Shown here: positions 2,124 through 32,000 of the stretch, one piece after another | Numbering within the stretch: position 1 is the first letter of the stretch | Layout of the letters: each line of letters starts with the position of its first letter | NCBI RefSeq assembly: GCF_900167395.1 | Contig: NZ_FUWK01000005.1 | Coordinates: forward strand, 1 to 32,000 | Reading direction: 5' to 3' | From: Nitrosomonas europaea | GTDB lineage: Bacteria > Pseudomonadota > Gammaproteobacteria > Burkholderiales > Nitrosomonadaceae | DNA: 32,000 nt | The notes under the pieces: generated by a model | Databases searched by the model: none | The model's input: the letters and a program-made list of their open reading frames with translations, nothing else | Told to the model about the DNA's origin: nothing | Program-made: the position numbers and the translations under genes

Positions 2124-3011
2124 ATGAATAAGTGCTCTCATACCACCTTGCCCTTAATACTGGGTGTATTTCTGCTAATCGCCTTTACCAATCCGGCTTA
2201 TGCACAAGTCAATGTAGTTGAAGCATTGATCGAATTCAAAAATCTGGATGGACTCGTCAAATCTCTAAAGCCAGAAGAACTGAATACCCTCGCCCGGCAG
2301 AAAACTTTGAAAGTTTTTGAAGTACACGAAGGTAGGGAGCGGCAATATAAAGTTTATCCAGCACAATCCGTTTTTGACCAAATGTTCGGTCCAAGCTGGC
2401 GAATAGCGGATGAAATCATCTTCACCTGCCAGGATGGCTACCGGCCCAGTATTCCGGTTGCAAAATTCCTCACTTACGATGCTTATCTCGCCGTTGCCAG
2501 CGCAGACAGCAAACCCTTTACACTCAGTAACGCACTCCAGAATCATGAAGTTGTAGCACTGGGACCCGCTTACCTGATATGGGATAACCTGAAATCTCCC
2601 GCTCTGCTCGATGAAGGTGCTTCCGATATGCCTTATCAGATTGCCCGTATTGAGCTGGCTTCTTTTGCGGCACGTTTTCCGGGAATGTTTCCACCAGCAG
2701 GTGCATCTGCAGAAACCAAGCGAGGGTTTCTGCATTTTCGCAAATACTGTATGGCGTGCCATACGATCAATGGCCAGGGAGGTGGCAAAGCACCCGAACT
2801 GAATTACCCGGTCAGCGTGATCGAATACTTCAAACCCGGATATCTGAAGCAATGGATCGATAACCCGGCCAGCCTACGCTACAACACCACCATGCCAGCT
2901 CTGACTGTAGCAATACCGGAACGGGAAAAGGTCATAGAAGAAATCATTGCCTATCTGACAGCCATGAGGGATGTGAAGCGCATGCGGCCTGCAGGAAACA
3001 GTAAGCAATAA
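2124..3011 (+). CDS. Secreted c-type cytochrome domain protein with an unassigned N-terminal domain of about 190 aa
   Basis: 295 aa. Signal peptide MNKCSHTTLPLILGVFLLIAFTNPAYA-QV. A single heme-binding CMACH motif sits near the C-terminus, with a downstream Met (NTTMPAL) as a plausible distal ligand. Confidence 0.8.
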   Translation: MNKCSHTTLPLILGVFLLIAFTNPAYAQVNVVEALIEFKNLDGLVKSLKPEELNTLARQKTLKVFEVHEGRERQYKVYPAQSVFDQMFGPSWRIADEIIFTCQDGYRPSIPVAKFLTYDAYLAVASADSKPFTLSNALQNHEVVALGPAYLIWDNLKSPALLDEGASDMPYQIARIELASFAARFPGMFPPAGASAETKRGFLHFRKYCMACHTINGQGGGKAPELNYPVSVIEYFKPGYLKQWIDNPASLRYNTTMPALTVAIPEREKVIEEIIAYLTAMRDVKRMRPAGNSKQ

Positions 3012-3090
3012 ACAACACTGGAAATCCTTACCGCCTGCCCGATAAACTTGATCCGGCCATTTCTTCCGTAACCGGAAGCGCATCCGGAAA

Positions 3091-3792
3091 TCACTCTTTT
3101 AACCGGATATCAACTTTGCCATCCGTCACCTGGATGTGTTCAACGCCCTCGGAAAAAGATTTCCAGAAACCGGGATCCATACCAAATTCGCTGACCAGAT
3201 CGATATTTTTCAATCCACCCAGCCAGGCATTAGGAACGGGAACTCCCATGATACTGACACCCTTGAGGATGATGACGGGCTTATCGTTGCGATAAGCCAT
3301 ACCGAGACCGGCGTTCAGGCGCAGCGTTTTCCCGCCCAGTACCGGAAAATCCTCATCGAGCGGAAGGAGCAGACGTGCACTTACCAGATCATCGGCAAAA
3401 TCGATCGCCAGTTTTTGTGCAAGATCGGTATTTTTGGCCAGCAATGCGTTTATTTCCCGCTCGGTAAAGTTGACTTCACGTTTTGCCCCCTGCTCGGAAT
3501 ACGCTTGAGGTTTCAGAAAACCTTCCTCATCGATTTCACCTTTGAGATCATCATTCCGCTTTGCTGTCGGTGACGAAAATGAAAAATCGTAACCGATCGT
3601 CCGGAGCTTTTGCTCCAGCGTTTTTTCTTCCTTTTTGCTCAAAATAACCGGTTCAAAGGATGAAACAAAAACATAGGTTGTGAGCACCCAGTAAGTACCG
3701 GCCACAGTCAGCACAATCGTAGCCAGAACGATCAGCAGCACATGTGACCAGTGCAAACGAGCGTTATTACTCGTATTTCCGGTTGAATTCAT
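3091..3792 (-). CDS. Membrane-anchored hypothetical protein (single N-terminal TM helix)
   Basis: 233-aa ORF with the hydrophobic helix VLLIVLATIVLTVAGTYWVLTTYVFV followed by a soluble domain. I recognise no catalytic motif. It converges on the cytochrome gene. Confidence 0.65.
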   Translation of the reverse strand: MNSTGNTSNNARLHWSHVLLIVLATIVLTVAGTYWVLTTYVFVSSFEPVILSKKEEKTLEQKLRTIGYDFSFSSPTAKRNDDLKGEIDEEGFLKPQAYSEQGAKREVNFTEREINALLAKNTDLAQKLAIDFADDLVSARLLLPLDEDFPVLGGKTLRLNAGLGMAYRNDKPVIILKGVSIMGVPVPNAWLGGLKNIDLVSEFGMDPGFWKSFSEGVEHIQVTDGKVDIRLKE

Positions 3793-4127
3793 CTTTGTCC
3801 GTCCAAGTTATTCAGCCGAAATTATAGCTGTTGCTCTATAAACCTGTACGCTACTATGCAAATAATGCCAACCGGTAGAATCACTACGGTAACCGGTCTT
3901 GGTAAGGCATACGAATACAGGCTTTCAAACCGGGAAATATTATCGGCAGATCAGCCATTTATTCCTATAGCACTCCGATTTTTTGTACATCTGATGTTTC
4001 ATTCTGAATGCTGCCGAAAGTACGTCATACTGGACCTTAACTTCTAAATTTTTTAATACTGTTGCCGGATCTGGAGGAAAATCATAAAGAAGATTTACTT
4101 ATTTCAGTTCCGGTACCATCAAATGCG

Positions 4128-4150
4128 TATAATTCTTGTTTGCATATAAT
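4128..4150 (+). promoter_or_regulatory. Two perfect TATAAT hexamers upstream of doxX (candidate -10 elements)
   Basis: TATAAT occurs at 4128-4133 and again at 4145-4150, in the AT-rich 485-bp divergent spacer 128-150 nt upstream of the doxX ATG. Neither has a good -35 hexamer. Confidence 0.3.
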
Positions 4151-4277
4151 CAGAAGATACAGGTGAATTCACGGCGGTAGGATCAGGGTTATTTCTCATC
4201 AAATGATAACGAACCCTGTAATTGATCCTTACGACAATCGTATTTTTAATTCACACAACTAAAGGAGAAAAACTGAA

Positions 4278-4682
4278 ATGAATCTTCCATTCCAGAATGA
4301 TGCACTGGGTAAATTAACCCTGCGACTCACTGTAGGTGTACTCATACTCCTTCATGGCGTACATAAAATATTTAACCCGGGTTCTCTTGACTACATCAGC
4401 ACACTGCTGGCAAATGTAAATCTGCCTCAGATACTGGCTTACGGGGTTTATCTGGGGGAAGTCATTGCACCGCTGATGATCATACTGGGAATATTTTCCC
4501 GAATTGGCGGCTTGCTCGTTTTTGGTAATACCGTATTTGCGATAGGGTTGGCACATCGCAGTGAACTATTCGCATTCACTGACCATGGCGGATATGCGTT
4601 GGAGTTGCAGGCTTTCTTTTTACTGACAGGGCTCGCGGTATTCTTTCTCGGAAGTGGCAGATTCGCCATTAAACCTGATTAA
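4278..4682 (+). CDS. DoxX family inner-membrane protein
   Basis: 134 aa with four hydrophobic segments. DoxX-like N-terminus LRLTVGVLILLHGVHKIF. A strong RBS (AAAGGAGAAAA) precedes the ATG. Confidence 0.85.
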   Translation: MNLPFQNDALGKLTLRLTVGVLILLHGVHKIFNPGSLDYISTLLANVNLPQILAYGVYLGEVIAPLMIILGIFSRIGGLLVFGNTVFAIGLAHRSELFAFTDHGGYALELQAFFLLTGLAVFFLGSGRFAIKPD

Positions 4683-4797
4683 ATATCTGAAAATTTACCA
4701 GTAGTCGTCTGTACAAGAGTATTCAGTCAACATGCACAAACGACTGCCTGTCGAATGCCGGTTTGTGCTACGTAATAACTGGAACCATCGTCGACAA

Positions 4798-4822
4798 CGG
4801 TGTTGCCGACGAGCCATACATT
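4798..4822 (-). terminator. Hairpin 11 nt downstream of the stop of the 794-aa gene (weak terminator candidate)
   Basis: TCGTCGaCAAC-ggt-GTTGcCGACGA forms 10 bp with one A/C mismatch. On the minus strand it is followed by TGGTTCCAGTTATTAC, which is only a modest U-tract. Confidence 0.35.
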
Positions 4823-4832
4823 CATAGTTGTT

Positions 4833-7217
4833 TCAGTGGCTTGCAGGAACCGACACTGGTTTTGGCGCTGGAACGACAGTCGATACCGGTTCAGGAGAAG
4901 CCACAGATCCATTCTCCACTCCTTCCTTTGCCGCAGGCTGAGGAGGCTTGTCATCCTCGGTTTTCTGACCGTCAGCAATTTCCTCTGCAGGGGATGCAGA
5001 AGGAATCTCTTGTGCAGTACTTGCTTCTTCTGTGCCAATTTCTGCTTTATCCGACAAGAAATGCTTTTTCAACGTGTCGACAGTACCCTGATTGAGGTAG
5101 CCACTGTGAAAAAGATAAGCAATGCTTCCCAGCAGGAGCAGAACGAAAAGATAGAATTTCCACGGACGTTTTTTCTCTGCATAAGGATCGGTCAGGGAGC
5201 GCTGCGCGCCGGCAGGCAATGTCGCCATTTGAGTCAATGAGATGCCAAACGGAATATTGATGATTGCCCGTGTATTGATTGCCCAACCATTCCCGTCAAG
5301 TAACGGTGCCAGATTACGTTTTCTGAGCTTGAGAAAAGCAATCAGTACGGAAGGACCGGATATTACGAGAATCAGGCCAAGAACCGTGAGTGGCATTTGC
5401 CACCAGGCCAGACCCAGGAAGCCGGTTACGACCGATGCAATCGCAGTACCGATTGCACCGATTGCAAGACCGATCGCAGCAAAAATCCCTGCAAACTTAC
5501 CTACATCGAAGGGCGCTGCCGCGGGTGGTTTACCTGCTTCCGCTTTTTGTGAAATATCCGCAATCCCTGCTGCCGCCTGATCCTGTACCGATTTTTCACG
5601 CGCACTGGCCACTTTCTCGATCTGTTCACCGATCATTTTGCCGATGCGCTTGTACGGATACCAGAAGGCCTGACGTACGCTGATGGGATGCTCGACGATC
5701 TTGACGATGGTGGCATCCCAATCCTGCCCTCTTCGATCATAGAAAATACCGTTCCGGCCAACCATCAAATTGTCTGCATCACCATTCGTAAACGCAGCCG
5801 CAATATTCATTTTTTCGCTGCCGCCCCTGCGCTGACATTCGCAATAGGCCAGATAGATGCCACTCAGACCGGCCATGCTGCTGTGCTTTTCGATATCGTC
5901 GACACGCAGGCAAAAATCACAGTTACGGCCATCCAGATACAGTGAACCTGCCTGAAAAACTGCCTTGTTCTGTGCAGTATAAAAATCACGAAACGAAACG
6001 AAATTGTTCAACAGCTGAAAAAGATTTCGCTGATAGCGAATCAGCTTTTCAACTGAATCGATCGCATCGGATGCGCTGGCAAGCGACTGATCTTTCTGCA
6101 GTAATGCACTGATCTCATCCTGATACCTTCCTGCCAGGATCGAACGAATACGATTGATTCCGAGAGATTCTACCGTTGCCCCCCGTTTGGTATCCAGCCA
6201 GGCCTGATGGGCAGTAAATCTGTCACAAAGCGCCTGCCATTCATCTGCGCTCAACTGTTCTTTATCGGCCAGTAGAGGTTGAACGACTTGTCGTTTCAGT
6301 GCATCGATCGCACCGACCCAGGCCGGATTGATGCCTTCATTGAGTGACAGTGGTTTTTTTGCCTCGATTTTTGCAAGCGGTAATGTGGCAAGTTGCTCAG
6401 TGGTGCTGGAGAGATCGGTATTGGTGAGTGCTTCATAATCCGATAACGCCGGATTCAGCGGATCCCCCGCTTTCTGGTCAAATTCAGCCAGCTTACAGCG
6501 GGTAAAGTAGTCATCTATTTTTGCTTTGACTGCATCAAAGGCCGCCTTTGCGGCTTCAGTATTTTCTCCCAGCGGTAATATGCTGGTAGCATCCCGTTCC
6601 GCATCCTGCCACCATTCCGAGTACGCTTTCGCTTCAGTAAAAAATTGTTCGATCAGTTCTGCTGAAACCCCCGGCAGACCGGATCGGTCCTGAACCGATC
6701 CGACACACTTCATCATATCTTCAATGACGGCCCGGGTTTCGGCATCGCTGGCAGCAGTGGCCGGAATGATGCCATCACCATTGAAGCGGGTACTGGCAAA
6801 AATTCTGTTGAGATCAGCCGTATCTTCGACTGTAATCACCTCTTCATCTTTTTTACCGATGTTGAGCAAAATCTGTCTGGCTGACGCGAGCAGCGCCGCA
6901 CCTTCCGGAGTACTGTCATCGATCGCACTCAGTTGCAGCGCTTCTGATCCAGAAGTGAGATCCCCGGGATTTTTCAGAACGGAAGACACCCATTCGACTG
7001 CAGCAATGATTTCCGGGACACGGATATGGCCATCATGATCAGTATCAATGAACTCGAGTGTTTTATCATCGAATTCCAAATTGCTCGTCGGGCAACTGAG
7101 CGCAGCCCACAGCTTGGGATCGAGCGTTCCGAGCGATTCGACATCCGCTCCGGTTTCCAGACGCACCTGATCAAAACCACCTGATCTGAAAAAACGCCAT
7201 TTATGAGCTGTATTCAT
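4833..7217 (-). CDS. Large membrane protein with an N-terminal canonical EF-hand loop; function unknown
   Basis: 794-aa uninterrupted ORF. Residues 58-69, DTDHDGHIRVPE, fit the 12-residue EF-hand loop D-x-D-x-D-G-x-I-x-x-x-E exactly (nt 7011-7046). About 560 aa of a mostly helical-looking soluble region follows. A hydrophobic block comes next (FAGIFAAIGLAIGAIGTAIASVVTGFLGLAWW, LTVLGLILVISGPSVLIAFL, FYLFVLLLLGSIAYLF). The last ~70 aa form a Pro/Ala/Glu/Ser-rich low-complexity tail. Confidence 0.85.
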   Translation of the reverse strand: MNTAHKWRFFRSGGFDQVRLETGADVESLGTLDPKLWAALSCPTSNLEFDDKTLEFIDTDHDGHIRVPEIIAAVEWVSSVLKNPGDLTSGSEALQLSAIDDSTPEGAALLASARQILLNIGKKDEEVITVEDTADLNRIFASTRFNGDGIIPATAASDAETRAVIEDMMKCVGSVQDRSGLPGVSAELIEQFFTEAKAYSEWWQDAERDATSILPLGENTEAAKAAFDAVKAKIDDYFTRCKLAEFDQKAGDPLNPALSDYEALTNTDLSSTTEQLATLPLAKIEAKKPLSLNEGINPAWVGAIDALKRQVVQPLLADKEQLSADEWQALCDRFTAHQAWLDTKRGATVESLGINRIRSILAGRYQDEISALLQKDQSLASASDAIDSVEKLIRYQRNLFQLLNNFVSFRDFYTAQNKAVFQAGSLYLDGRNCDFCLRVDDIEKHSSMAGLSGIYLAYCECQRRGGSEKMNIAAAFTNGDADNLMVGRNGIFYDRRGQDWDATIVKIVEHPISVRQAFWYPYKRIGKMIGEQIEKVASAREKSVQDQAAAGIADISQKAEAGKPPAAAPFDVGKFAGIFAAIGLAIGAIGTAIASVVTGFLGLAWWQMPLTVLGLILVISGPSVLIAFLKLRKRNLAPLLDGNGWAINTRAIINIPFGISLTQMATLPAGAQRSLTDPYAEKKRPWKFYLFVLLLLGSIAYLFHSGYLNQGTVDTLKKHFLSDKAEIGTEEASTAQEIPSASPAEEIADGQKTEDDKPPQPAAKEGVENGSVASPEPVSTVVPAPKPVSVPASH

Positions 7218-10260: not shown

Positions 10261-10291
10261 GCCGCCTGCCAGCCAGTTGCGCGGCAGCGGC
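10261..10291 (+). terminator. GC-rich hairpin 8 nt after the lon stop (weak U-tract)
   Basis: GCCGC(c)TGCC ... GGCAGCGGC forms 9 bp with one bulge and a 12-nt loop. It is followed by AATTTGTCGC. Confidence 0.35.
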
Positions 10292-10426
10292 AATTTGTCG
10301 CATGGCTATTTGGTGAAATCCGGGTTACAGTGTGAATCACCAGGCAGATACTTTTCTTATCTGTCATATATTTGTCTGGTGCAGTTGTTATCCTTGCATT
10401 TTGAATCAATGAAAGGAGAAAGCTTT

Positions 10427-10720
10427 ATGCGAAATGAAACACAGACTACGCATTCCCACAGCAAGCATGAGCAACACTGCCAGCATGTGTACGAAACCGG
10501 ACAGTTACGGCGTGCAAAAATGCATGTCGCACGTCTGACTGGTAATTTTGACAGCAGGAAAATTCTCTCGCCGTCATTACTTCAACTGCTTGAAACCAGC
10601 ATTATTTTGGAGACAACCGACTCGAAAGTGCTTGCCTCCCGGTTAAAACGTAAACCAGCCGCAATCCGTGCTGACCTGCAGAAAATCTGCCATCTCCTTG
10701 CAGAAGAACCAAGGTTATAA
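10427..10720 (+). CDS. Small hypothetical protein with a His-rich N-terminus
   Basis: I prefer ATG 10427 because it is preceded by AAAGGAGAAAG with 5-6 nt spacing. This gives 97 aa, MRNETQTTHSHSKHEQHCQH..., with a possible helix-turn-helix-like C-terminal part. No family is recognised. Confidence 0.5.
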   Translation: MRNETQTTHSHSKHEQHCQHVYETGQLRRAKMHVARLTGNFDSRKILSPSLLQLLETSIILETTDSKVLASRLKRKPAAIRADLQKICHLLAEEPRL

Positions 10721-25092: not shown

Positions 25093-26054
25093 TGAAACTG
25101 GCTTTCATCCTGGATCCGCTCGACAGTATCAAAATCGGCAAGGATTCGAGCTACGCCATGATGCGTGAGGCCGCAGTCCGTCACCATCAGCTGTATACCC
25201 TGCAACAGAATGATCTGGCGTGGAAAGATCATCAGGTCATCGGCTTCGCACGACCGCTGACACTCCTCGATCCGCCGGAAGGTGACCACCGCTGGTATGA
25301 AGAAGGTGCCATCGAAGAAATTCCGCTGTCCGGGTTTGATGCTGTGCTCATGCGAAAGGACCCTCCTTTCGATACCGAATATATCTACAGCACCTACTTG
25401 CTCGAACTGGCTGAACGCCAGGGTGCCTATGTCGTGAACAGCCCGCGAGGAATTCGTGACCACAACGAAAAACTGGCGATTACCGAATTTCCCCGATTCA
25501 CGCCCCCCTCACTGGTAACCAGCCAGGAACAACTGATTCTCGAGTTTCTGGCCGAACATGAGGACATCATCCTAAAACCCCTGGATGGTATGGGAGGCGC
25601 CGGTATTTTCCGTATCCAGAATACCGACCATAACATTGGCGTCATCATCGAGACACTGACACGCTACGGTACGCGCACCATCATGGCACAGCGCTTTCTG
25701 CCGGAAATCCGGGAAGGCGACAAACGCATATTGCTGATTGCGGGAAGACCAGTCGATTATGCACTCGCACGCATCCCAAAACCGGGGGAAACACGCGGCA
25801 ACCTGGCAGCCGGCGGGACGGGTGTGGCACGACCGCTATCAGCCCGTGACAGGGAAATTGCCGAAGAACTGGGACAGATACTCTATGCGCGTGGCCTGAT
25901 GCTGGTAGGGCTGGATGTCATCGGCAACCATCTGACGGAAATAAACGTCACCAGCCCGACCGGCATGCGAGAAATCTCCGATCAGACCGGAACGAACGTT
26001 GCGGGACTAATGATCGATGCGCTGGAACAGAACATTGCCAGGAAAAACCGGTAA
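25092..26054 (+). CDS. gshB: Glutathione synthetase
   Basis: 320 aa. The N-terminus reads MKLAFILDPLDSIKIGKDSSYAMM, followed by an ATP-grasp domain (ILKPLDGMGGAGIF, NLAAGG, EINVTSPTG). Confidence 0.95.
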   Translation: MKLAFILDPLDSIKIGKDSSYAMMREAAVRHHQLYTLQQNDLAWKDHQVIGFARPLTLLDPPEGDHRWYEEGAIEEIPLSGFDAVLMRKDPPFDTEYIYSTYLLELAERQGAYVVNSPRGIRDHNEKLAITEFPRFTPPSLVTSQEQLILEFLAEHEDIILKPLDGMGGAGIFRIQNTDHNIGVIIETLTRYGTRTIMAQRFLPEIREGDKRILLIAGRPVDYALARIPKPGETRGNLAAGGTGVARPLSARDREIAEELGQILYARGLMLVGLDVIGNHLTEINVTSPTGMREISDQTGTNVAGLMIDALEQNIARKNR

Positions 26055-26077
26055 AAATATCGCACGGCACTAAACAG

Positions 26078-26818
26078 CTAATCTCCAACCGGGCCGCGCG
26101 CCAGATCAACCATTTTTCTCAATCTCTCGACATCGAGCACGCGCAATTCATGGCCCGTCCGCTGAATCAGCCGGTTCCTGGCAAGTTCACTCAATTCACG
26201 GGTAACGGCTTCGCGGTGGGTGCTGACAAAACACGCCAGCTCGGCATGTGTCGGGGCAGGCTTGATAATGGCCGTATTCGGAGAATCCATGTGCTGCCTT
26301 GCAAGTCTCAGCAGTTCTGCATGGATGCGATTACGCACCGCCAGCGTACTGAAATCGAAGACCCGTTCAGTCAGACGGCGCACCTGGCCTGCCAGACGCT
26401 GCATGATCGCCATGCAGAATACCGGGCTCTCATGCACCAGCCGTATGAACGCCTGGTTTGACATGACCGCCAGCAAAGAATCAGATCGGGCAACGACCGT
26501 AGCAGATCTCGGCTGACCATCGATTGCCGTCAGCTCACCGAAAAACTCCCCTTGCGATAAATCGCACAGAATCACTTCATCACCGGAATAACCGAAGTAA
26601 TGAATCCGCACACCACCTTCAAGCACAAAAAACACATTGTCACTATGATCGAGGTAACGAACGATCTCTTCTCCAGCAAGAAAATGCTGCATTTGCAGAA
26701 GCTGCGCCACCATCTCCAGATCTGAAGCGGAAAAATCCCTGAATTCTCTGATGACTGTCAGTTGAGTACCGGTTACCTCTCTGGATTGATTGTAAAAATC
26801 ATTGGCATAAGTACTCAT
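26078..26818 (-). CDS. Crp/Fnr-family transcription regulator with cNMP-binding domain
   Basis: I prefer ATG 26818, which is preceded by GGGAG at 8 nt, giving 246 aa. The phosphate-binding cassette FFGELTAIDGQPRSATVVA is present. The C-terminal HTH has recognition helix REAVTR, with the same R-E-x-x-x-R spacing as E. coli CRP RETVGR. Confidence 0.9.
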   Translation of the reverse strand: MSTYANDFYNQSREVTGTQLTVIREFRDFSASDLEMVAQLLQMQHFLAGEEIVRYLDHSDNVFFVLEGGVRIHYFGYSGDEVILCDLSQGEFFGELTAIDGQPRSATVVARSDSLLAVMSNQAFIRLVHESPVFCMAIMQRLAGQVRRLTERVFDFSTLAVRNRIHAELLRLARQHMDSPNTAIIKPAPTHAELACFVSTHREAVTRELSELARNRLIQRTGHELRVLDVERLRKMVDLARGPVGD

Positions 26819-26880
26819 ACTCACCACTCCCTATGAGGCCTGTTGCGCGAATAGCTTCGATCATACGATCCTGCCGCAAA

Positions 26881-27300
26881 TTACCAGGGGATACAGTAAA
26901 CTTGTCCGCGGAATACCAATACTGACCTGCAGTTATCATCTCCAGCATAGGCATCTGTGCTGCCGCTCCCTAATTGCAGCATCAGTTCTTTTATACTTGA
27001 ACCCGCTCCGGCTGTCATCCCTGCAAGCCCTTTACCATAAAAAACCAGATCAGCTTGTTCACCATCTTTCTTTTTGATGACAAGCACCCCCTCTGTTCTT
27101 TCAGAATCCAATTCGTTCCTGGTTAGCGTTTCCAGGTTCTTAACTGTCAGATCCTGTTTTTCATAGGATACGACCTTTACCGGAATACCCGTCTGGCTTA
27201 ATTTAAACAGGTAAGCCAGGATTATTACCAACAGTATGATATTAACAAGAAAACTGATTCTGTATCTGGTCAGTAATCCTTCCCGATCATGAGTTCCCAT
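26881..27300 (-). CDS. Small bitopic hypothetical protein (N-terminal TM anchor, ~95-aa extracytoplasmic part)
   Basis: ATG 27300 is preceded by GGGAGA. The track start, TTG 27312, lies 1 nt after the upstream TAA. The TM helix is ISFLVNIILLVIILAYLF. The C-terminus ...CRSVLVFRGQVYCIPW has two Cys residues. No family is recognised. Confidence 0.6.
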   Translation of the reverse strand: MGTHDREGLLTRYRISFLVNIILLVIILAYLFKLSQTGIPVKVVSYEKQDLTVKNLETLTRNELDSERTEGVLVIKKKDGEQADLVFYGKGLAGMTAGAGSSIKELMLQLGSGSTDAYAGDDNCRSVLVFRGQVYCIPW

Positions 27301-27313
27301 CGTATCTCCCAAG

Positions 27314-30300
27314 TTAAAAGTTCAAGGTTATTCTGGCAAACAACGTCCGTTCAGGTATATATCTGGGCAAAGCCGGCTCCGACAGATAAAGATACTGATT
27401 CCGGTAGTAGAAATGTTTATTCAGTAGATTTCTGACTTCAAAACTCAGCAATCCTTTGCGTTTGGGCAATCTGTACCCTGCAACCATATCCAGCAGAAAA
27501 AAATTGGAATCCTTCTTCTCAATCCAGCCAAGCCATGTATCTTCGTCAAATCGCGCCCATTTTACATCCTGCATGACATAAGTGCCGGTCAGCTTCGCCC
27601 AGAATCCATTCTGGTCAAAATAGCTCACACTGATCGGCGCTCTCAATGTATGAATATTCGTAGGCAAATCTGCATATCTTTCCTTTCTATCGAATTTCTC
27701 GTATTCAGGTTCGATCGCAACAACCCAGTTCGGGCGAAACGTGCCATAAACATAGCCCCGGAGTAATTGTTCTTTCTGCTTATCCCAATAATAATCCCTG
27801 TCCGACACACCCAGCTCAGGAATTACCGGCACATCCAGATCACGCTCGGATACCTCCACTCCGCCATAAACGGCATTGGCAAAATGAATATCCAGCCCGA
27901 CTGCCTTATGTCGTGATTTCGTTCCGGTCATTTCATCATAGAATTGATTAAATCCGGCGATCTGGGTCGGCTCGATTGTCGCCTGACCAATCAGATCCCG
28001 CTTCAGCGCTTCAAACCAGGCCATACGCAAACGAACATTTTTGTGGAAATCTACCTGCAGTCCAATTTTGGGATCAAATTCACTGACTTTTCGATTGATT
28101 CCTCCAGCATCATTGGAATAGGCTTGATAACTGAAACCCAGCGTGGCCATCACATTTTTGAGTATATTCAGATTCGAATACAGATACGCAACATTCTGTT
28201 CCTTATCCGCTTTGGACTTCTCACATCCCATCATCATACAAATCAGCGGTTCGGTATTTTTTCTGAAATCATTCGTCAGATTGGTCCGGTAAATACCACC
28301 ACCAGTAATCACATTCACCCGATCCTTGCGAAGAATATGTTGTGCTTCAACCTGGTAACCATGGCTGCGCTGATCCCCATAAAACGGGAAATCACTACCC
28401 AGATCTTCTATTACATCAGCATCCTGGTGCGTATAAATCGTCGAGAATAGAAAATTCTGCCGAGGTGAAATCCGGTACATCGCCCCTATACGCGCCGTAT
28501 CTTCTTCGAGATTCAAGCGCGCTACCTCGGAAAATTTCTTTGGATCAAAATCCATCAGCAAATCCCCGTGCTTCTTTTCCCGCCGGCGCAACTCTGCCTG
28601 AACATTCAAATCCGGTGTAACCGCATACTGCACGAAAGCATTATAGATATTATGCGTCTGGTCATTGTTGGGCCGGAATCCATCGGTCTGATAATGAAAC
28701 TGCCCCACACTGACCGAAGCCCGGTCATACACGCCGGACACAACGACTTCATCCCCCAGCGCACCATGATTGCCAACTACACCGGAGGCCACCAGTTGCG
28801 CCTTATTGCGCTCCATCAGTGGTGCGAATTCGTTGAACCCCGGTGCTGAGGGGCCTGTACCGGTAATGAGATTGAGGTCAGCTACCGCCATTCTGGGCTG
28901 TACCGGATTGACGTTGACTGGCTGCAGCAGTTGAGCCTGCAGCAGTTCGCTCACCCGCGCGATTTCGTGGCGCGGAACATTGGCATAAGCATCGGACAGA
29001 AACCGGTGCGCGGAATGACTGGCCGGATCAAAGCTCAGCGACTTGGCCGTTTCCATCAGAGCACGTTTTTCAAACCCGAGATTGTCATAAATCCGTGCCA
29101 GGCTGGAACCGCGCGCTGCCTGATCCTGATCCAGCAGCAGTTGCGAACGGTACACCGCACGATTATCGTTCAGCTCAATTGATTTCTGGACATCGCGCAA
29201 CGCTTCCACTGGCCGGTTCTGGGTCTGTTTCTGGATCGCATCGTACAACCAGGGAGTGGGATCGTTCGGGTCGCGTGCTTTGGCCAGATCAAACTGGGTG
29301 CCGGCCAGCGGATAGCGCTTTTCTTCGAAATAGGCTTTCCCGAGATAACTGCGGATCAGCGAATTCGCCGGATCCAGGCTGGCTGCCGTTTCGATATCGA
29401 TACGTCCGGCTTCGAGTTTATTCTCACGTATCCGGGCAATCCCGATCCCCAACCGGGGCATAGGATCAGCCTGATCGAGCACGGTCGCCCGGGCAAAAGC
29501 TACCTGCGCCCGGTGAGTATCAATCTGCAGAAGATGGGCAAAACCCAAAACGGTTTGTGTCCTGCTCAGATCAGGGTCGAGGCTGACAGCTCGTTCGGCT
29601 GACTGCAACGCATGGTCGGATTTCCCGGCAGACATCTGCAATTCTGCCAGGCGTGCCCAGGCCAGGGCATTTTGCGAATCGAGCCGGACAGCCTCCTCCG
29701 CACTGGCCAAGGCTGTTTCGATCTGAAAATTCGCTTGCTGCGCATAAGAAAGTGCCAGCTTTGCTGCAGATGAAGCCGGATTATTTCTGACAGCCTGTCC
29801 AGCCAGTGCCAGTGCTTCCTGCTTACGATTCTGTACCACGAATATCATTGCATGCAATGCCAGTGCATCACTGTTACCGGGTTCAAGCTGCTCTGTTCGT
29901 TGCAGATCCGATAAGGCTTCCTTTACCCGACCGGTGGTCAGCAACAGCTCGGAGCGAAGAATCAGAGCATCTACCGTCAATTCTTCGGCCAGCAGATGAT
30001 CCAGTTCAGCCAGTGCTTCTGCCAGCTTGCCCTGCCGATACTGTTCGATTACATGATGCACCGCAGGTGATTGCTGATTTTCATGACCTGATCGGGAGTA
30101 CAAATCAATCAGCATTGGATAGTGCAACGCCCACTGCACTGCATCGAGCGGGTGCACCATGACGGTCTTTCGGGCAGGCTGATTTTCCTGAAAAACCGCA
30201 GCCTCCTGATTTGCCAGAATCAGATTATCCTGATCACTACCAGCCTTAACCCGGCCTTCATAAACCGCGATCGTTACGCTGGGAGACGAGTCATCCTCGC

Positions 30301-30811
30301 CGCCTGCATCCACCAGAAATTCGGTTCCATCGACACTGGCATTGACCACAGGTGTTCTGATTTTGAAGGGTTTAGGCGTGCGGGTGATGATGTGCATCAC
30401 GCCATTCATTAAATCCAGCAGAGTATTCTGCTCGACATCAGGGCCTGAGATAGTAATTGCCGTTCGCTGATTCAGCCGAAGCATGCTTTCGTTACTGAGC
30501 CGGAGCGCTGCACGACTGTTGGCGCGCACCCTCACTCTGTCACCGGCACAGAATGTGCTGTTGGAAGCAGCCATGTGCCAGCCCGAATCTCCCGGCCGGT
30601 GATATTCCACCACACCCTGCAATGAAACCATCCGTGCTACCGGTGCGTTGCATACCTCCTCCGCAAAGGCAATCGAAACAGCACCAGTCGTCATGAAAAA
30701 GCACAATCCCGGCAGAGCTCTGTAAAGTAATTTCAGTGTTGCAGGAATCCACCCGGTACATTGCGCATTTTTCATAAATTTATCATTTCGCCGTTGATAA
30801 CAGACAATCAT
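27314..30811 (-). CDS. Large secreted protein: FecR-like domain + TPR array + putative C-terminal outer-membrane beta-barrel
   Basis: 1165-aa ORF; ATG 30775 is an alternative start. Signal peptide ...GLCFFMTTGAVSIAFA-EE. The FecR-like block spans about residues 57-190 (LQGVVEYH..W......FCAGDRVRVRANSRAALRLSNESMLRLNQRTAITI....FKIRTPVVNASVDGTEFLV....VYEGRVKA). At least eight TPR-like repeats, with recurring A-x-x-L-D/N-P motifs, cover about residues 240-640. The last ~470 aa are rich in Tyr/Asn/Gly/Phe with alternating hydrophobicity and end RTLFARITLNF, an OMP beta-signal with a terminal Phe. Confidence 0.85.
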   Translation of the reverse strand: MIVCYQRRNDKFMKNAQCTGWIPATLKLLYRALPGLCFFMTTGAVSIAFAEEVCNAPVARMVSLQGVVEYHRPGDSGWHMAASNSTFCAGDRVRVRANSRAALRLSNESMLRLNQRTAITISGPDVEQNTLLDLMNGVMHIITRTPKPFKIRTPVVNASVDGTEFLVDAGGEDDSSPSVTIAVYEGRVKAGSDQDNLILANQEAAVFQENQPARKTVMVHPLDAVQWALHYPMLIDLYSRSGHENQQSPAVHHVIEQYRQGKLAEALAELDHLLAEELTVDALILRSELLLTTGRVKEALSDLQRTEQLEPGNSDALALHAMIFVVQNRKQEALALAGQAVRNNPASSAAKLALSYAQQANFQIETALASAEEAVRLDSQNALAWARLAELQMSAGKSDHALQSAERAVSLDPDLSRTQTVLGFAHLLQIDTHRAQVAFARATVLDQADPMPRLGIGIARIRENKLEAGRIDIETAASLDPANSLIRSYLGKAYFEEKRYPLAGTQFDLAKARDPNDPTPWLYDAIQKQTQNRPVEALRDVQKSIELNDNRAVYRSQLLLDQDQAARGSSLARIYDNLGFEKRALMETAKSLSFDPASHSAHRFLSDAYANVPRHEIARVSELLQAQLLQPVNVNPVQPRMAVADLNLITGTGPSAPGFNEFAPLMERNKAQLVASGVVGNHGALGDEVVVSGVYDRASVSVGQFHYQTDGFRPNNDQTHNIYNAFVQYAVTPDLNVQAELRRREKKHGDLLMDFDPKKFSEVARLNLEEDTARIGAMYRISPRQNFLFSTIYTHQDADVIEDLGSDFPFYGDQRSHGYQVEAQHILRKDRVNVITGGGIYRTNLTNDFRKNTEPLICMMMGCEKSKADKEQNVAYLYSNLNILKNVMATLGFSYQAYSNDAGGINRKVSEFDPKIGLQVDFHKNVRLRMAWFEALKRDLIGQATIEPTQIAGFNQFYDEMTGTKSRHKAVGLDIHFANAVYGGVEVSERDLDVPVIPELGVSDRDYYWDKQKEQLLRGYVYGTFRPNWVVAIEPEYEKFDRKERYADLPTNIHTLRAPISVSYFDQNGFWAKLTGTYVMQDVKWARFDEDTWLGWIEKKDSNFFLLDMVAGYRLPKRKGLLSFEVRNLLNKHFYYRNQYLYLSEPALPRYIPERTLFARITLNF

Positions 30812-30886
30812 AACAAATTGCCGGAATATGGTTTCAATACATCAGCATAACATCGCTACAGATTAACCGGTAAGGTGCTGTATCGA

Positions 30887-30902
30887 CGTGATTTTTGACA
30901 CA
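30887..30902. promoter_or_regulatory. CRP-like inverted repeat CGTGA-N6-ACACA upstream of the FecR-TPR-barrel gene
   Basis: It matches TGTGA-N6-TCACA at 8 of 10 positions. It is centred about 84 nt upstream of ATG 30811, in the 140-bp spacer. By itself this is statistically weak. Confidence 0.3.
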
Positions 30903-30951
30903 GTTGCCAACAGGAAATCTGCGGGCCGGATGTGCTGTCTGCATCCGGACA

Positions 30952-32000
30952 TCATTTCGATTGTATGGATATGATCAGCTCACCCGCTTCCCGGACTGGA
31001 AACAATCGGGGTTCACGGCAATAGGTAAGCATGAATCGGGTGGGGCCATCTTCGGGGAAACGTTCATGGATCATTTCGAATCGATGCAATGCATCCACCC
31101 GGTTGCCGGTTTGACAAACGTGCAGTGCTTGCTCATACGCGGCACACAGCTGTCTCTGCGCTGCATTGCTGCCACTCTGACGAGCGACCAGTTCAAACAG
31201 GTTGACCGGTTGTGACTTTCCCGGCAGCAGAAACCGCCCGAGCGGACGCAGCAGCAGATCATTCAACCCATTTACTACTTCTTCCGATACCAGCAACCGG
31301 GTACCCAGATGCTTATTGACTCCCTGGATACGGTTGGCTGTATTGACGATATCGCCCACCGCACGGTACTCATAATGCTGTCGTGCACCAATGTTGCCTA
31401 GTACCATTTCACCAAAATGTAACCCTAGCCGGGTTGGAAGGGGCGGACGGCCGTATCCGCCCTGGTGATTGAAGCGCTCTATCGCGCTGATGATATCCAG
31501 GCAAGCCAGGCACGCCCGTTCGCGCACAAGCGGATCAGCAGAACCAGCCGCCCAGATGGCCAGCATGGCATCGCCGATCACATCGGACACTTTGCCCTGA
31601 TAACGCTCAACCGGTTCAAACAGGCACTCATAATATGCATGCATGAGTGCGGCAAGCTGGCGAGGATCCATAGCTTCAGCAAGCGCAGTATATTTTTCCG
31701 CATCTGTCGCCAGGCAGGCTCCATAGACCAGTTGCCCTTCCGTATGGATCGGGCCTGCACCACGAACCATATCCCGCACCACTGGCTCTGGCCGATGTCC
31801 ACCAAACAGCGCCTCGATCCGCCTGCGTTCCCGGTCAGCTTCAAAATACAGCAGGGTGACGATCCCGATCACACCCACCGGTAACTGCACCATCAGCGGA
31901 ATAGCCAGAGGAATCCACAATTGCCATTGTCCGAACAGCCATACACTCGCACTGCCATAAGCACAAAACGACAGGATTCCTGCCAGTGCCATTCCCAGCG
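30952..32000 (-). CDS. Membrane-anchored class III nucleotidyl (adenylate/guanylate) cyclase, 5'-truncated by the window edge
   Basis: The frame stays open to nt 32000. Two hydrophobic helices are followed by a cyclase homology domain: metal Asp residues in CLATDAEKYT and VIGDAMLAIW, transition-state residues in GDIVNTANRIQG, and GLHFGEMVLGNIG. A ~75-aa C-terminal extension follows. A CHASE2-type periplasmic sensor upstream is inferred, not seen. Confidence 0.85.
   Translation of the reverse strand, partial: LGMALAGILSFCAYGSASVWLFGQWQLWIPLAIPLMVQLPVGVIGIVTLLYFEADRERRRIEALFGGHRPEPVVRDMVRGAGPIHTEGQLVYGACLATDAEKYTALAEAMDPRQLAALMHAYYECLFEPVERYQGKVSDVIGDAMLAIWAAGSADPLVRERACLACLDIISAIERFNHQGGYGRPPLPTRLGLHFGEMVLGNIGARQHYEYRAVGDIVNTANRIQGVNKHLGTRLLVSEEVVNGLNDLLLRPLGRFLLPGKSQPVNLFELVARQSGSNAAQRQLCAAYEQALHVCQTGNRVDALHRFEMIHERFPEDGPTRFMLTYCREPRLFPVREAGELIISIQSK

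Follow-up and report, generated by a model that had tools for sequence, protein, structure and literature searches.

What does a protein do that carries, in a single chain, a FecR domain, a tetratricopeptide repeat (TPR) scaffold and a C-terminal β-barrel ending in Phe? The question is raised by a gene at positions 27314..30811, on the reverse strand, of a 32,000-nucleotide stretch of Nitrosomonas europaea DNA (contig NZ_FUWK01000005.1, positions 1 to 32,000, hereafter "the window"), for which an earlier note made from the sequence had weighed exporter-like, translocator-like and signalling functions. Combining the reading of open reading frames (ORFs), Pfam profiles, homologue searches, an AlphaFold2 (AF2) model, Foldseek and hhalign, we consider it likely that this gene encodes an outer-membrane signal receptor of the type of NsrA from Sinorhizobium meliloti, and that it belongs to a four-gene cyclic-nucleotide (cNMP) cassette together with a CHASE2 cyclase, a small partner protein and a Crp-like regulator.

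A FecR and TPR protein with a plug-less 22-strand barrel

The reading frame runs without interruption over 1165 codons and ends in ...ARITLNF; translation likely starts at Met13, with a predicted signal peptide ending in ...SIAFA before EE. An identical 1165-amino-acid (aa) protein is found on the 12 contigs that were read, the four places shown coming from four different sequencing runs, and the best 120 database homologues measure 1070–1214 aa at a query coverage of at least 95%, the named members among them being mostly Nitrosomonas, Nitrosospira or Nitrosovibrio. Of 599 stretches matched in a collection of species-representative genomes, at least 553 proved to be relatives. No supporting point was found for the suspicion that the ORF is an assembly or annotation artefact joining two ORFs, and its chance is negligible: it is refuted by the 12 contigs with an identical protein, by the 120 full-length homologues, and by NsrA, which shares the layout.

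Pfam places a FecR domain (PF04773) at aa 91–189 (E 1.7e-16; score 60.9 bits, cutoff 24), a number of TPR families at aa ~256–444, and TonB_dep_Rec_b-barrel (PF00593) at aa 711–1129 (E 4.8e-11; score 43.6 bits, cutoff 27, with 43.6–47.3 bits across scans). The AF2 model, built from a 120-sequence alignment and with a mean predicted local distance difference test (pLDDT) score of 78, gives a FecR-type β-sandwich at aa 57–216 (30164..30643, reverse strand, as for all receptor parts below), predicted to be periplasmic, with strands at pLDDT ~70–92 and aligning with the FecR domain of NsrA. It is followed by a solenoid of TPR/helical repeats at aa 237–627 (28931..30103; pLDDT >85 at aa 260–540), by a linker from scaffold to barrel at aa 628–671 (28799..28930), conserved in sequence and not confidently modelled, and by the barrel at aa 672–1165 (27317..28798), which ends in Phe. 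Counting DSSP elements, with 1029–1033 merged with 1036–1042, the barrel comprises 22 β-strands at aa 672–1164. The three-part architecture read in the earlier note is thus borne out: its FecR-like block passes the profile search, its last ~470 aa form a barrel rather than a soluble domain, and the terminal Phe is at least 90% conserved across the 120 homologues. Both this terminal-Phe β-signal and the signal-peptide-like N-terminus are consistent with placement in the outer membrane. The same note had called the architecture unusual, which did not hold, as it is neither rare nor undescribed. Searched on its own, the barrel gave 2248 cluster representatives (50% clustering), of which 928 reach E ≤ 1e-30; proteins of ~1100 aa among them mostly have the barrel at the C-terminus. 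NsrA has the same layout (PMC7529298, PMC13001267).

The barrel is of the TonB-dependent transporter (TBDT) type. When the model was compared with the PDB by Foldseek, 47 of the top 50 matches were TBDTs and the other three matched the TPR part; the best matches (FptA, PqqU, FhuE, FpvA, Fiu, BtuB, FrpB, YncD and FecA) reached E 6e-16 to 2e-12, with TM-scores relative to the target of 0.44–0.62. BcsC, PgaA, PelB, Slam and LptD were absent from this top 50, and a single-sequence search of the barrel against PDB sequences returned nothing meaningful. A permissive Pfam scan (E ≤ 10) of five barrels, those of the window protein, NsrA and three diverse relatives, found PF00593 in all but that of NsrA, plus weak generic outer-membrane barrel families; the BCSC_C, PgaA-barrel, PelB and DUF560 families matched none of the five barrels at this threshold. 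Pfam detects no Plug (PF07715) or STN domain in the receptor at E ≤ 0.01, the TonB-box motif itself not having been searched for, and strand 1 is preceded by the 44-residue linker only. We conclude that the barrel is a TBDT fold without a plug, and membership of the TBDTs fails because the plug domain is missing. The 22-strand barrel and the PF00593 match are common to the receptor and to TBDTs and transducers such as FecA, FpvA, BtuB and FptA, but TBDTs have a plug, and transducers an STN domain, an extracytoplasmic function (ECF) sigma/anti-sigma pair and TonB genes, none of which were seen here.

FecR domains are otherwise known from the FecA–FecR–FecI system, where FecR-type anti-sigma factors have their anti-sigma N-terminus in the cytoplasm and, after a single transmembrane (TM) segment, a FecR domain in the periplasm and an STN-binding domain at the C-terminus, with an ECF sigma factor as neighbour. 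The receptor was considered as such a factor and rejected: only the FecR domain is present, the anti-sigma N-terminus and TM segment are absent, and the neighbouring genes include no sigma factor. With the NCBIfam FecR equivalog, the receptor reaches 15 bits, where the cutoff is 385. The two systems are alike in that a FecR-type periplasmic domain signals, or here would signal, from outer to inner membrane. In FecA–FecR–FecI, however, this domain sits on an inner-membrane anti-sigma protein with a sigma factor as output, whereas here it is fused to the barrel protein and the predicted output is a cyclase.

Conservation is unevenly spread along the protein. Column identity is 0.72 at aa 256–478 and 0.91 at aa 479–627, so that the C-terminal part of the TPR scaffold is the most conserved region, and it remains high in the linker (0.88, many residues between R619 and L665 being invariant), giving 0.88–0.91 over aa 479–671. 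Since the linker combines this conservation with a pLDDT <50 at aa 623–666, its folding probably depends on contact with a partner or on placement within the barrel. The predicted surface loops L4, L5, L6, L8, L9 and L10 are hypervariable (column identity 0.08–0.22); L5 (aa 846–867; 28211-28276) carries a Cys pair (...PLICMMMGCEK...). Unlike these, L7 (aa 937–964, between strands 13 and 14; 27920..28003) and L11 (aa 1128–1155, between strands 21 and 22; 27347..27430) are conserved 28-residue loops with column identities of 0.83 and 0.62, respectively. L7 is a candidate in-barrel constriction, and L11 may likewise be functional. On direct reading of their sequences, the predicted surface loops contain much Asp and Glu; the external loops of NsrA are also acidic, and have been proposed in the literature to bind the basic ribosomal protein uL2.

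Kinship with NsrA and the genes around the receptor

The comparison with NsrA was prompted by its layout and then checked by sequence. A tblastn search of the window protein against plasmids led to rhizobial chromids, where the match in Ensifer canadensis is a 1216-aa FecR and TPR protein with a CHASE2 cyclase directly after it; the S. meliloti orthologue, 71% identical to the E. canadensis protein, is annotated nsrA and adjoins cyaK (CP140934.1). NsrA itself (1200 aa, pSymB) has a FecR domain at aa 66–160 (E 2.3e-15), TPRs at ~378–587 and a long C-terminal region, its aa 600–1200 being treated as the β-barrel portion (PMC7529298). BLASTP aligns the window protein with NsrA at E 3e-9 over aa 57–548, and hhalign does so with 99.3% probability (E 2e-20) over 400 columns covering the FecR domain and TPRs. 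For the C-terminal halves, pairwise BLAST was not significant (E ~0.1), but a hidden Markov model (HMM) of 249 family barrels matches NsrA at aa 866–1183 with E 1.3e-9 at Z=1e6. Homology to NsrA is therefore supported by sequence comparison for both the N-terminal half and the barrel, and the receptor is best filed as a distant relative of NsrA with a predicted outer-membrane location.

In S. meliloti, NsrA is an outer-membrane-associated receptor that the CHASE2 cyclases CyaK, CyaD1 and CyaD2 need for the perception of plant signals, including ribosomal protein uL2, and the cyclic AMP (cAMP) made by these NsrA-dependent cyclases activates the Crp-like regulator Clr (PMC7529298; PMC13001267; PMC9927233). 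Basic proteins such as ribosomal uL2 activate NsrA, and one NsrA serves three cyclases (PMC7529298). The window protein resembles it in having a signal peptide, a FecR domain, TPRs and a C-terminal barrel of ~500–600 aa (~1200 aa in all, compared with 1165 here), in the position of its gene next to a CHASE2 class III cyclase, and in a Crp-family output, predicted here (Clr in S. meliloti; PMC13001267). The gene order is reversed, however, with nsrA before cyaK in S. meliloti and the cyclase before the receptor here. The Crp-like gene lies in cis here, unlike in the NsrA system, the cyclase departs from CyaK in its specificity residues, and the host is a free-living nitrifier of the Nitrosomonas type instead of a plant symbiont. 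On pSymB, the gene upstream of nsrA and divergent from it (locus L002, 5256-5801, reverse strand) encodes a PycTM membrane protein (PF18967, Pycsar effector-like; E 3e-11), a cyclic-nucleotide-associated effector domain that there stands beside a cyclase locus.

The gene upstream of the receptor is a cyclase cut by the window edge, and the earlier note had missed that it is a CHASE2 receptor cyclase. Its 3' part (348 codons; 30952..32000, reverse strand) lies 140 nucleotides from the receptor, matches Pfam Guanylate_cyc and stays in open frame to the edge; this fragment starts in TM helices, the CHASE2 part of the class III nucleotide cyclase lying beyond. On contigs with the identical receptor, the full protein has 759 aa, with CHASE2 at 36–393 and Guanylate_cyc at 509–674 (locus L004, 1771-4050). 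The part in the window is 30% identical to aa 324–595 of S. meliloti CyaK (E 7e-23) and retains the Asn/Arg pair along with its two metal-binding Asp residues. Where CyaK has its substrate-specifying Lys, an Asp is found here (SDVIGD versus DKYIGD), and the second specificity position is occupied by a conserved Arg (YRAVGD); at these positions we take Lys and Asp/Thr/Ser, respectively, to be the usual class III determinants. Because of this Asp and Arg, the product of the cyclase is uncertain, and it may not be cAMP.

Downstream, on the same strand as the cyclase and the receptor, follow a small partner gene (26881..27312) and a gene for a Crp/Fnr-family cNMP-binding transcription regulator (26078..26827; cNMP_binding E 2e-20, HTH_Crp_2 E 1e-12), a putative functional analogue of Clr. 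A promoter and terminator scan of 25900-32000 found sites no commoner than in shuffled sequence, so that the operon boundaries are drawn from gene spacing alone. The partner begins ~13 nucleotides past the receptor stop codon, with a likely ATG at 27300 that gives a protein of 139 aa, comprising an N-terminal TM anchor, a predicted periplasmic domain of ~95 aa and a Cys124...Cys136 hairpin. Neither it nor any other small partner type has a family in Pfam, NCBIfam or PADLOC; its AF2 model is unusable (pLDDT 48), and its relatives number 3 by word-based homology search and 14 by family profile. As the earlier note had stated, the window partner (139/143 aa) lacks a lipobox and has a long TM anchor instead, but this does not extend to its counterparts elsewhere, over a quarter of which do carry one by a crude classifier.

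Such a counterpart is the rule: a small ORF (75–270 aa) was found in this position behind 77 of 87 receptor genes, mostly with a spacing of ~13–20 nucleotides. By a crude classifier based on regular expressions and hydrophobicity, 23 of 83 of these ORFs have a lipobox, 21 a TM or signal sequence, and 39 neither. They fall into at least four mutually unrelated families, and cannot be called a single one since the four main families match each other with hhalign probabilities of at most 4%. Partner type partly tracks receptor clade, and a C-x(4-14)-C hairpin ends 37 of 79 unique small ORFs, compared with 8.5% of control ORFs (odds ratio 9.5, p 2e-18). We suggest that the small partner may serve its receptor as a cognate accessory, docking to the plug-less barrel or closing it off.

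Asking, as the earlier note had, what such fusions neighbour, we surveyed 77 related genomic loci and found that the layout recurs, rather than being rare, and that its neighbours are recognisable: at 45 of the 61 loci with at least 2.5 kb of upstream flank, the gene immediately upstream, in the same orientation, encodes a CHASE2 cyclase, and a Crp-like gene is present at 22 of the 53 with enough downstream flank. The cyclase–receptor arrangement also occurs in Desulfosarcina, Nitrospirae/Nitrospirales, Thermodesulfobacteriota and Gammaproteobacteria, at 42–45% identity. A second receptor copy stands in tandem at 12 loci; such receptors, seen at L017, L027, L032, L034, L042, L043, L053, L054, L056, L072 and L081, usually have their own small downstream ORF each. 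Most tandem loci sit behind a single CHASE2 cyclase, L027 having two Crp-like genes, which suggests that more than one receptor signals to the same cyclase; in S. meliloti, conversely, three cyclases depend on one NsrA (PMC7529298). At L008 (Nitrosovibrio), L026, L035 and L041 (Nitrosospira), the receptor has neither a cyclase nor a Crp gene adjacent; the small downstream ORF is present in L008 and L026, and the L008 receptor adjoins a TIR and TPR protein. Presumably these orphan receptors use a cyclase encoded elsewhere, or another output.

Across 45 cyclase–receptor pairs, a mirror-tree comparison of pairwise distances, which is confounded by shared phylogeny and comes without a significance test, gave Spearman coefficients between the CHASE2 periplasmic domain and the receptor parts of 0.87 for FecR, 0.81 for the C-terminal TPR part plus linker, 0.77 for the N-terminal TPR part and 0.55 for the barrel. 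The catalytic domain of the cyclase gave 0.46 with FecR and 0.28 with the barrel. This pattern fits a periplasmic interface between FecR/TPR and CHASE2, along with a barrel that diversifies independently. Genes for FecR-domain proteins have also been described close to those for CHASE2 sensors, both in Campylobacterota (PMC9239204) and in Burkholderia (PMC5192318), the link being known in both from gene neighbourhood alone. The Campylobacterota CHASE2-adenylate-cyclase clusters place a FecR envelope protein by the CHASE2 sensor, together with a TPR protein and cAMP components, but there one gene encodes the FecR outer-membrane protein and another the TPR protein (PMC9239204), whereas here they are fused. 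In Burkholderia, the likeness is a FecR protein next to CHASE2; it is a LysM-FecR protein without a barrel, and the output is a CHASE2 histidine kinase (PMC5192318).

Proposed mechanism and competing explanations

A signalling outer-membrane protein coupled to cNMP, one of the possibilities that the earlier note had raised, is the best-supported reading, given the homology to NsrA and the synteny with a CHASE2 cyclase. In such a system, the receptor would be exported and its 22-strand, plug-less barrel inserted into the outer membrane by the β-barrel assembly machinery (BAM), with the hypervariable loops facing outward to recognise an extracellular cue, and the linker, TPR scaffold and FecR domain hanging in the periplasm. 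Ligand binding would be passed through the linker and TPRs to the FecR domain, and the FecR/TPR portion would make contact with CHASE2, the periplasmic domain of the class III cyclase that is encoded alongside and sits in the inner membrane. Cyclic-nucleotide synthesis would thereby be switched on, and the co-encoded Crp-like regulator would read the nucleotide. The direction of the signal, from the outer membrane to the cyclase, is proposed here by analogy with the genetics of NsrA.

Several observations weigh against this proposal. Identity between NsrA and the window protein is only 22–26%, the barrel HMM match to NsrA spans only profile positions 165–468 of 495 (~60%), and in the permissive scan the NsrA barrel gave a weak generic outer-membrane match only, not reaching the PF00593 family that the barrel here does reach. 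S. meliloti nsrA also has no equivalent of the small partner gene, nor of the tandem receptor arrays seen in relatives of the window receptor, so the partner element is without precedent. Within the protein, peak conservation falls on the C-terminal TPR part and the linker, not on the FecR domain that would contact CHASE2; the predicted template modelling (pTM) score of 0.53 leaves the arrangement of domains relative to each other uncertain, the conserved linker is left out of the confident model, and a plug-less 22-strand barrel would form a very wide pore without an identified closure. At 16 of the 61 loci, including the Nitrosovibrio locus L008, no cyclase is adjacent, the shared phylogeny noted above tempers the mirror-tree correlations, and the non-canonical specificity residues leave the second messenger not established.

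The main competing explanation is that the barrel exports or surface-displays the small Cys-hairpin protein, as a translocon or a plug-and-barrel pair comparable to Slam/TbpB, LptD–LptE or RcsF–OmpA, with the cyclase and Crp-like regulator controlling it or being controlled by it. A tightly coupled small ORF after almost every receptor copy, the missing plug domain, a lipobox in 23 and a TM or signal sequence in 21 of the 83 crudely classified ORFs, a partner family that partly tracks barrel clade, and a common C-terminal Cys hairpin that could be a docking signal all speak for such a pair. By the same crude classification, however, 39 of 83 small ORFs cannot be classical periplasmic substrates, as they have no recognisable signal peptide, and the window partner is held by a long TM anchor, not by a lipobox. 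The barrel is of TBDT type and not DUF560, Omp85 or LptD, the synteny is with a sensor cyclase and not with secretion genes, and NsrA acts in signal perception without any such partner (PMC7529298). LptD–LptE, where a small lipoprotein plugs a large barrel in trans, offers a mechanistic analogy only: a barrel without its own plug is found here beside a small, often lipidated partner, whose use as a plug is purely hypothetical, and there is no sequence or fold relationship between the two systems. We thus regard export or display of the partner as unlikely to be what the barrel is for, although some handling of the partner by the barrel could coexist with signalling.

The fold of the barrel raises the further idea of a TonB-independent uptake channel, or an unconventional FecA-type transducer, that imports a nutrient such as iron and reports its occupancy through the FecR domain in cis. 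PF00593 scores above its cutoff, the Foldseek matches are siderophore, cobalamin and FecA transporters, and FecR domains belong, by general knowledge, to FecA–FecR–FecI; yet neither Plug nor STN was detected, the FecR-type anti-sigma N-terminus and TM segment are missing, no ECF sigma/anti-sigma pair, TonB/ExbBD or siderophore genes lie near the receptor in the window or syntenic contigs, and the synteny is instead with cyclase and Crp genes, all of which makes this idea improbable. An exopolysaccharide export porin of the BcsC/PgaA/PelB kind, to which the earlier note had likened the layout alongside Slam/DUF560, is effectively refuted. These porins and Slam do share the order of periplasmic TPRs followed by a C-terminal outer-membrane barrel, and NCBIfam PgaA gives a weak match, but it is confined to the TPR part and reaches 21.6 bits against a cutoff of 366. 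Their barrels have 16 strands in the porins and 14 in Slam/DUF560, compared with the 22 modelled here; the profile and fold searches described above linked none of these families to the barrel, and the FecR domain is present here in addition. Synthase, glycosyltransferase or modifying-enzyme genes are found neither in the window, as the earlier note had observed for the adjacent genes, nor in syntenic contigs or related loci, and no clear lipoprotein-substrate context stands out in the window, whose partner has a TM anchor and lacks the lipobox that 23 of 83 counterparts carry by the crude classifier.

Flanking genes and significance

Beyond the Crp-like gene lie the convergent gshB and gshA and then housekeeping genes. 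Elsewhere in the window, the stretch at 2124-7217 has a lower GC content (0.44–0.48 around 2–5 kb) and contains three ORFs without a Pfam or PADLOC family, of 295 aa (2124-3011, forward strand; its C-terminal part giving only a weak, sub-threshold match to a SoxX-like c-type cytochrome), 233 aa (3091-3792, reverse strand) and 794 aa (4833-7217, reverse strand). Directly after lon, a 147-aa ORF (10277-10720, forward strand) has no match in Pfam, NCBIfam or PADLOC.

The core architecture of the receptor has a named precedent in NsrA, a kind of protein that is barely characterised. To our knowledge, NsrA, which is from a plant symbiont, is so far the only example to have been defined genetically, and it comes without an available structure or mechanism. 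What makes the window locus worth following up is its compact cassette, which would be usable for reconstitution, its fast-diverging partner slot and its link to the CHASE2 ligand, the ligands of CHASE2 domains being, as far as we know, described in the literature as unknown. One possibility, which we put forward tentatively and rather doubtfully, is that each barrel gene makes up, together with the fast-diverging gene for its Cys-hairpin partner, a cognate receptor module that diversifies, and that such modules, often in tandem, converge through FecR/TPR on one CHASE2 cyclase. If so, CHASE2 would be activated by the docking of a FecR-domain protein and not by a small molecule, the plug-less TBDT-like barrel would be a TonB-independent trans-envelope transducer gated or plugged in trans by its partner, and the swapped residues of the cyclase (Asp and Arg for Lys and Asp/Thr/Ser) may mean that the messenger is not cAMP.

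Returning to the NsrA-type receptor as such, the barrel can now be defined as a plug-less TBDT fold, and the FecR-domain partner offers a testable candidate for CHASE2 sensing. The pairing of a FecR–TPR–barrel receptor with a CHASE2 cyclase is widespread in free-living ammonia oxidisers and reaches Nitrospirae/Nitrospirales, Thermodesulfobacteriota and Gammaproteobacteria. Given this spread well beyond symbionts, NsrA-type signalling would be a general route from the outer membrane to a cyclase and not a speciality of symbiosis, and nitrifiers would possess a set of unstudied surface sensors that may control their behaviour in biofilms and wastewater communities.

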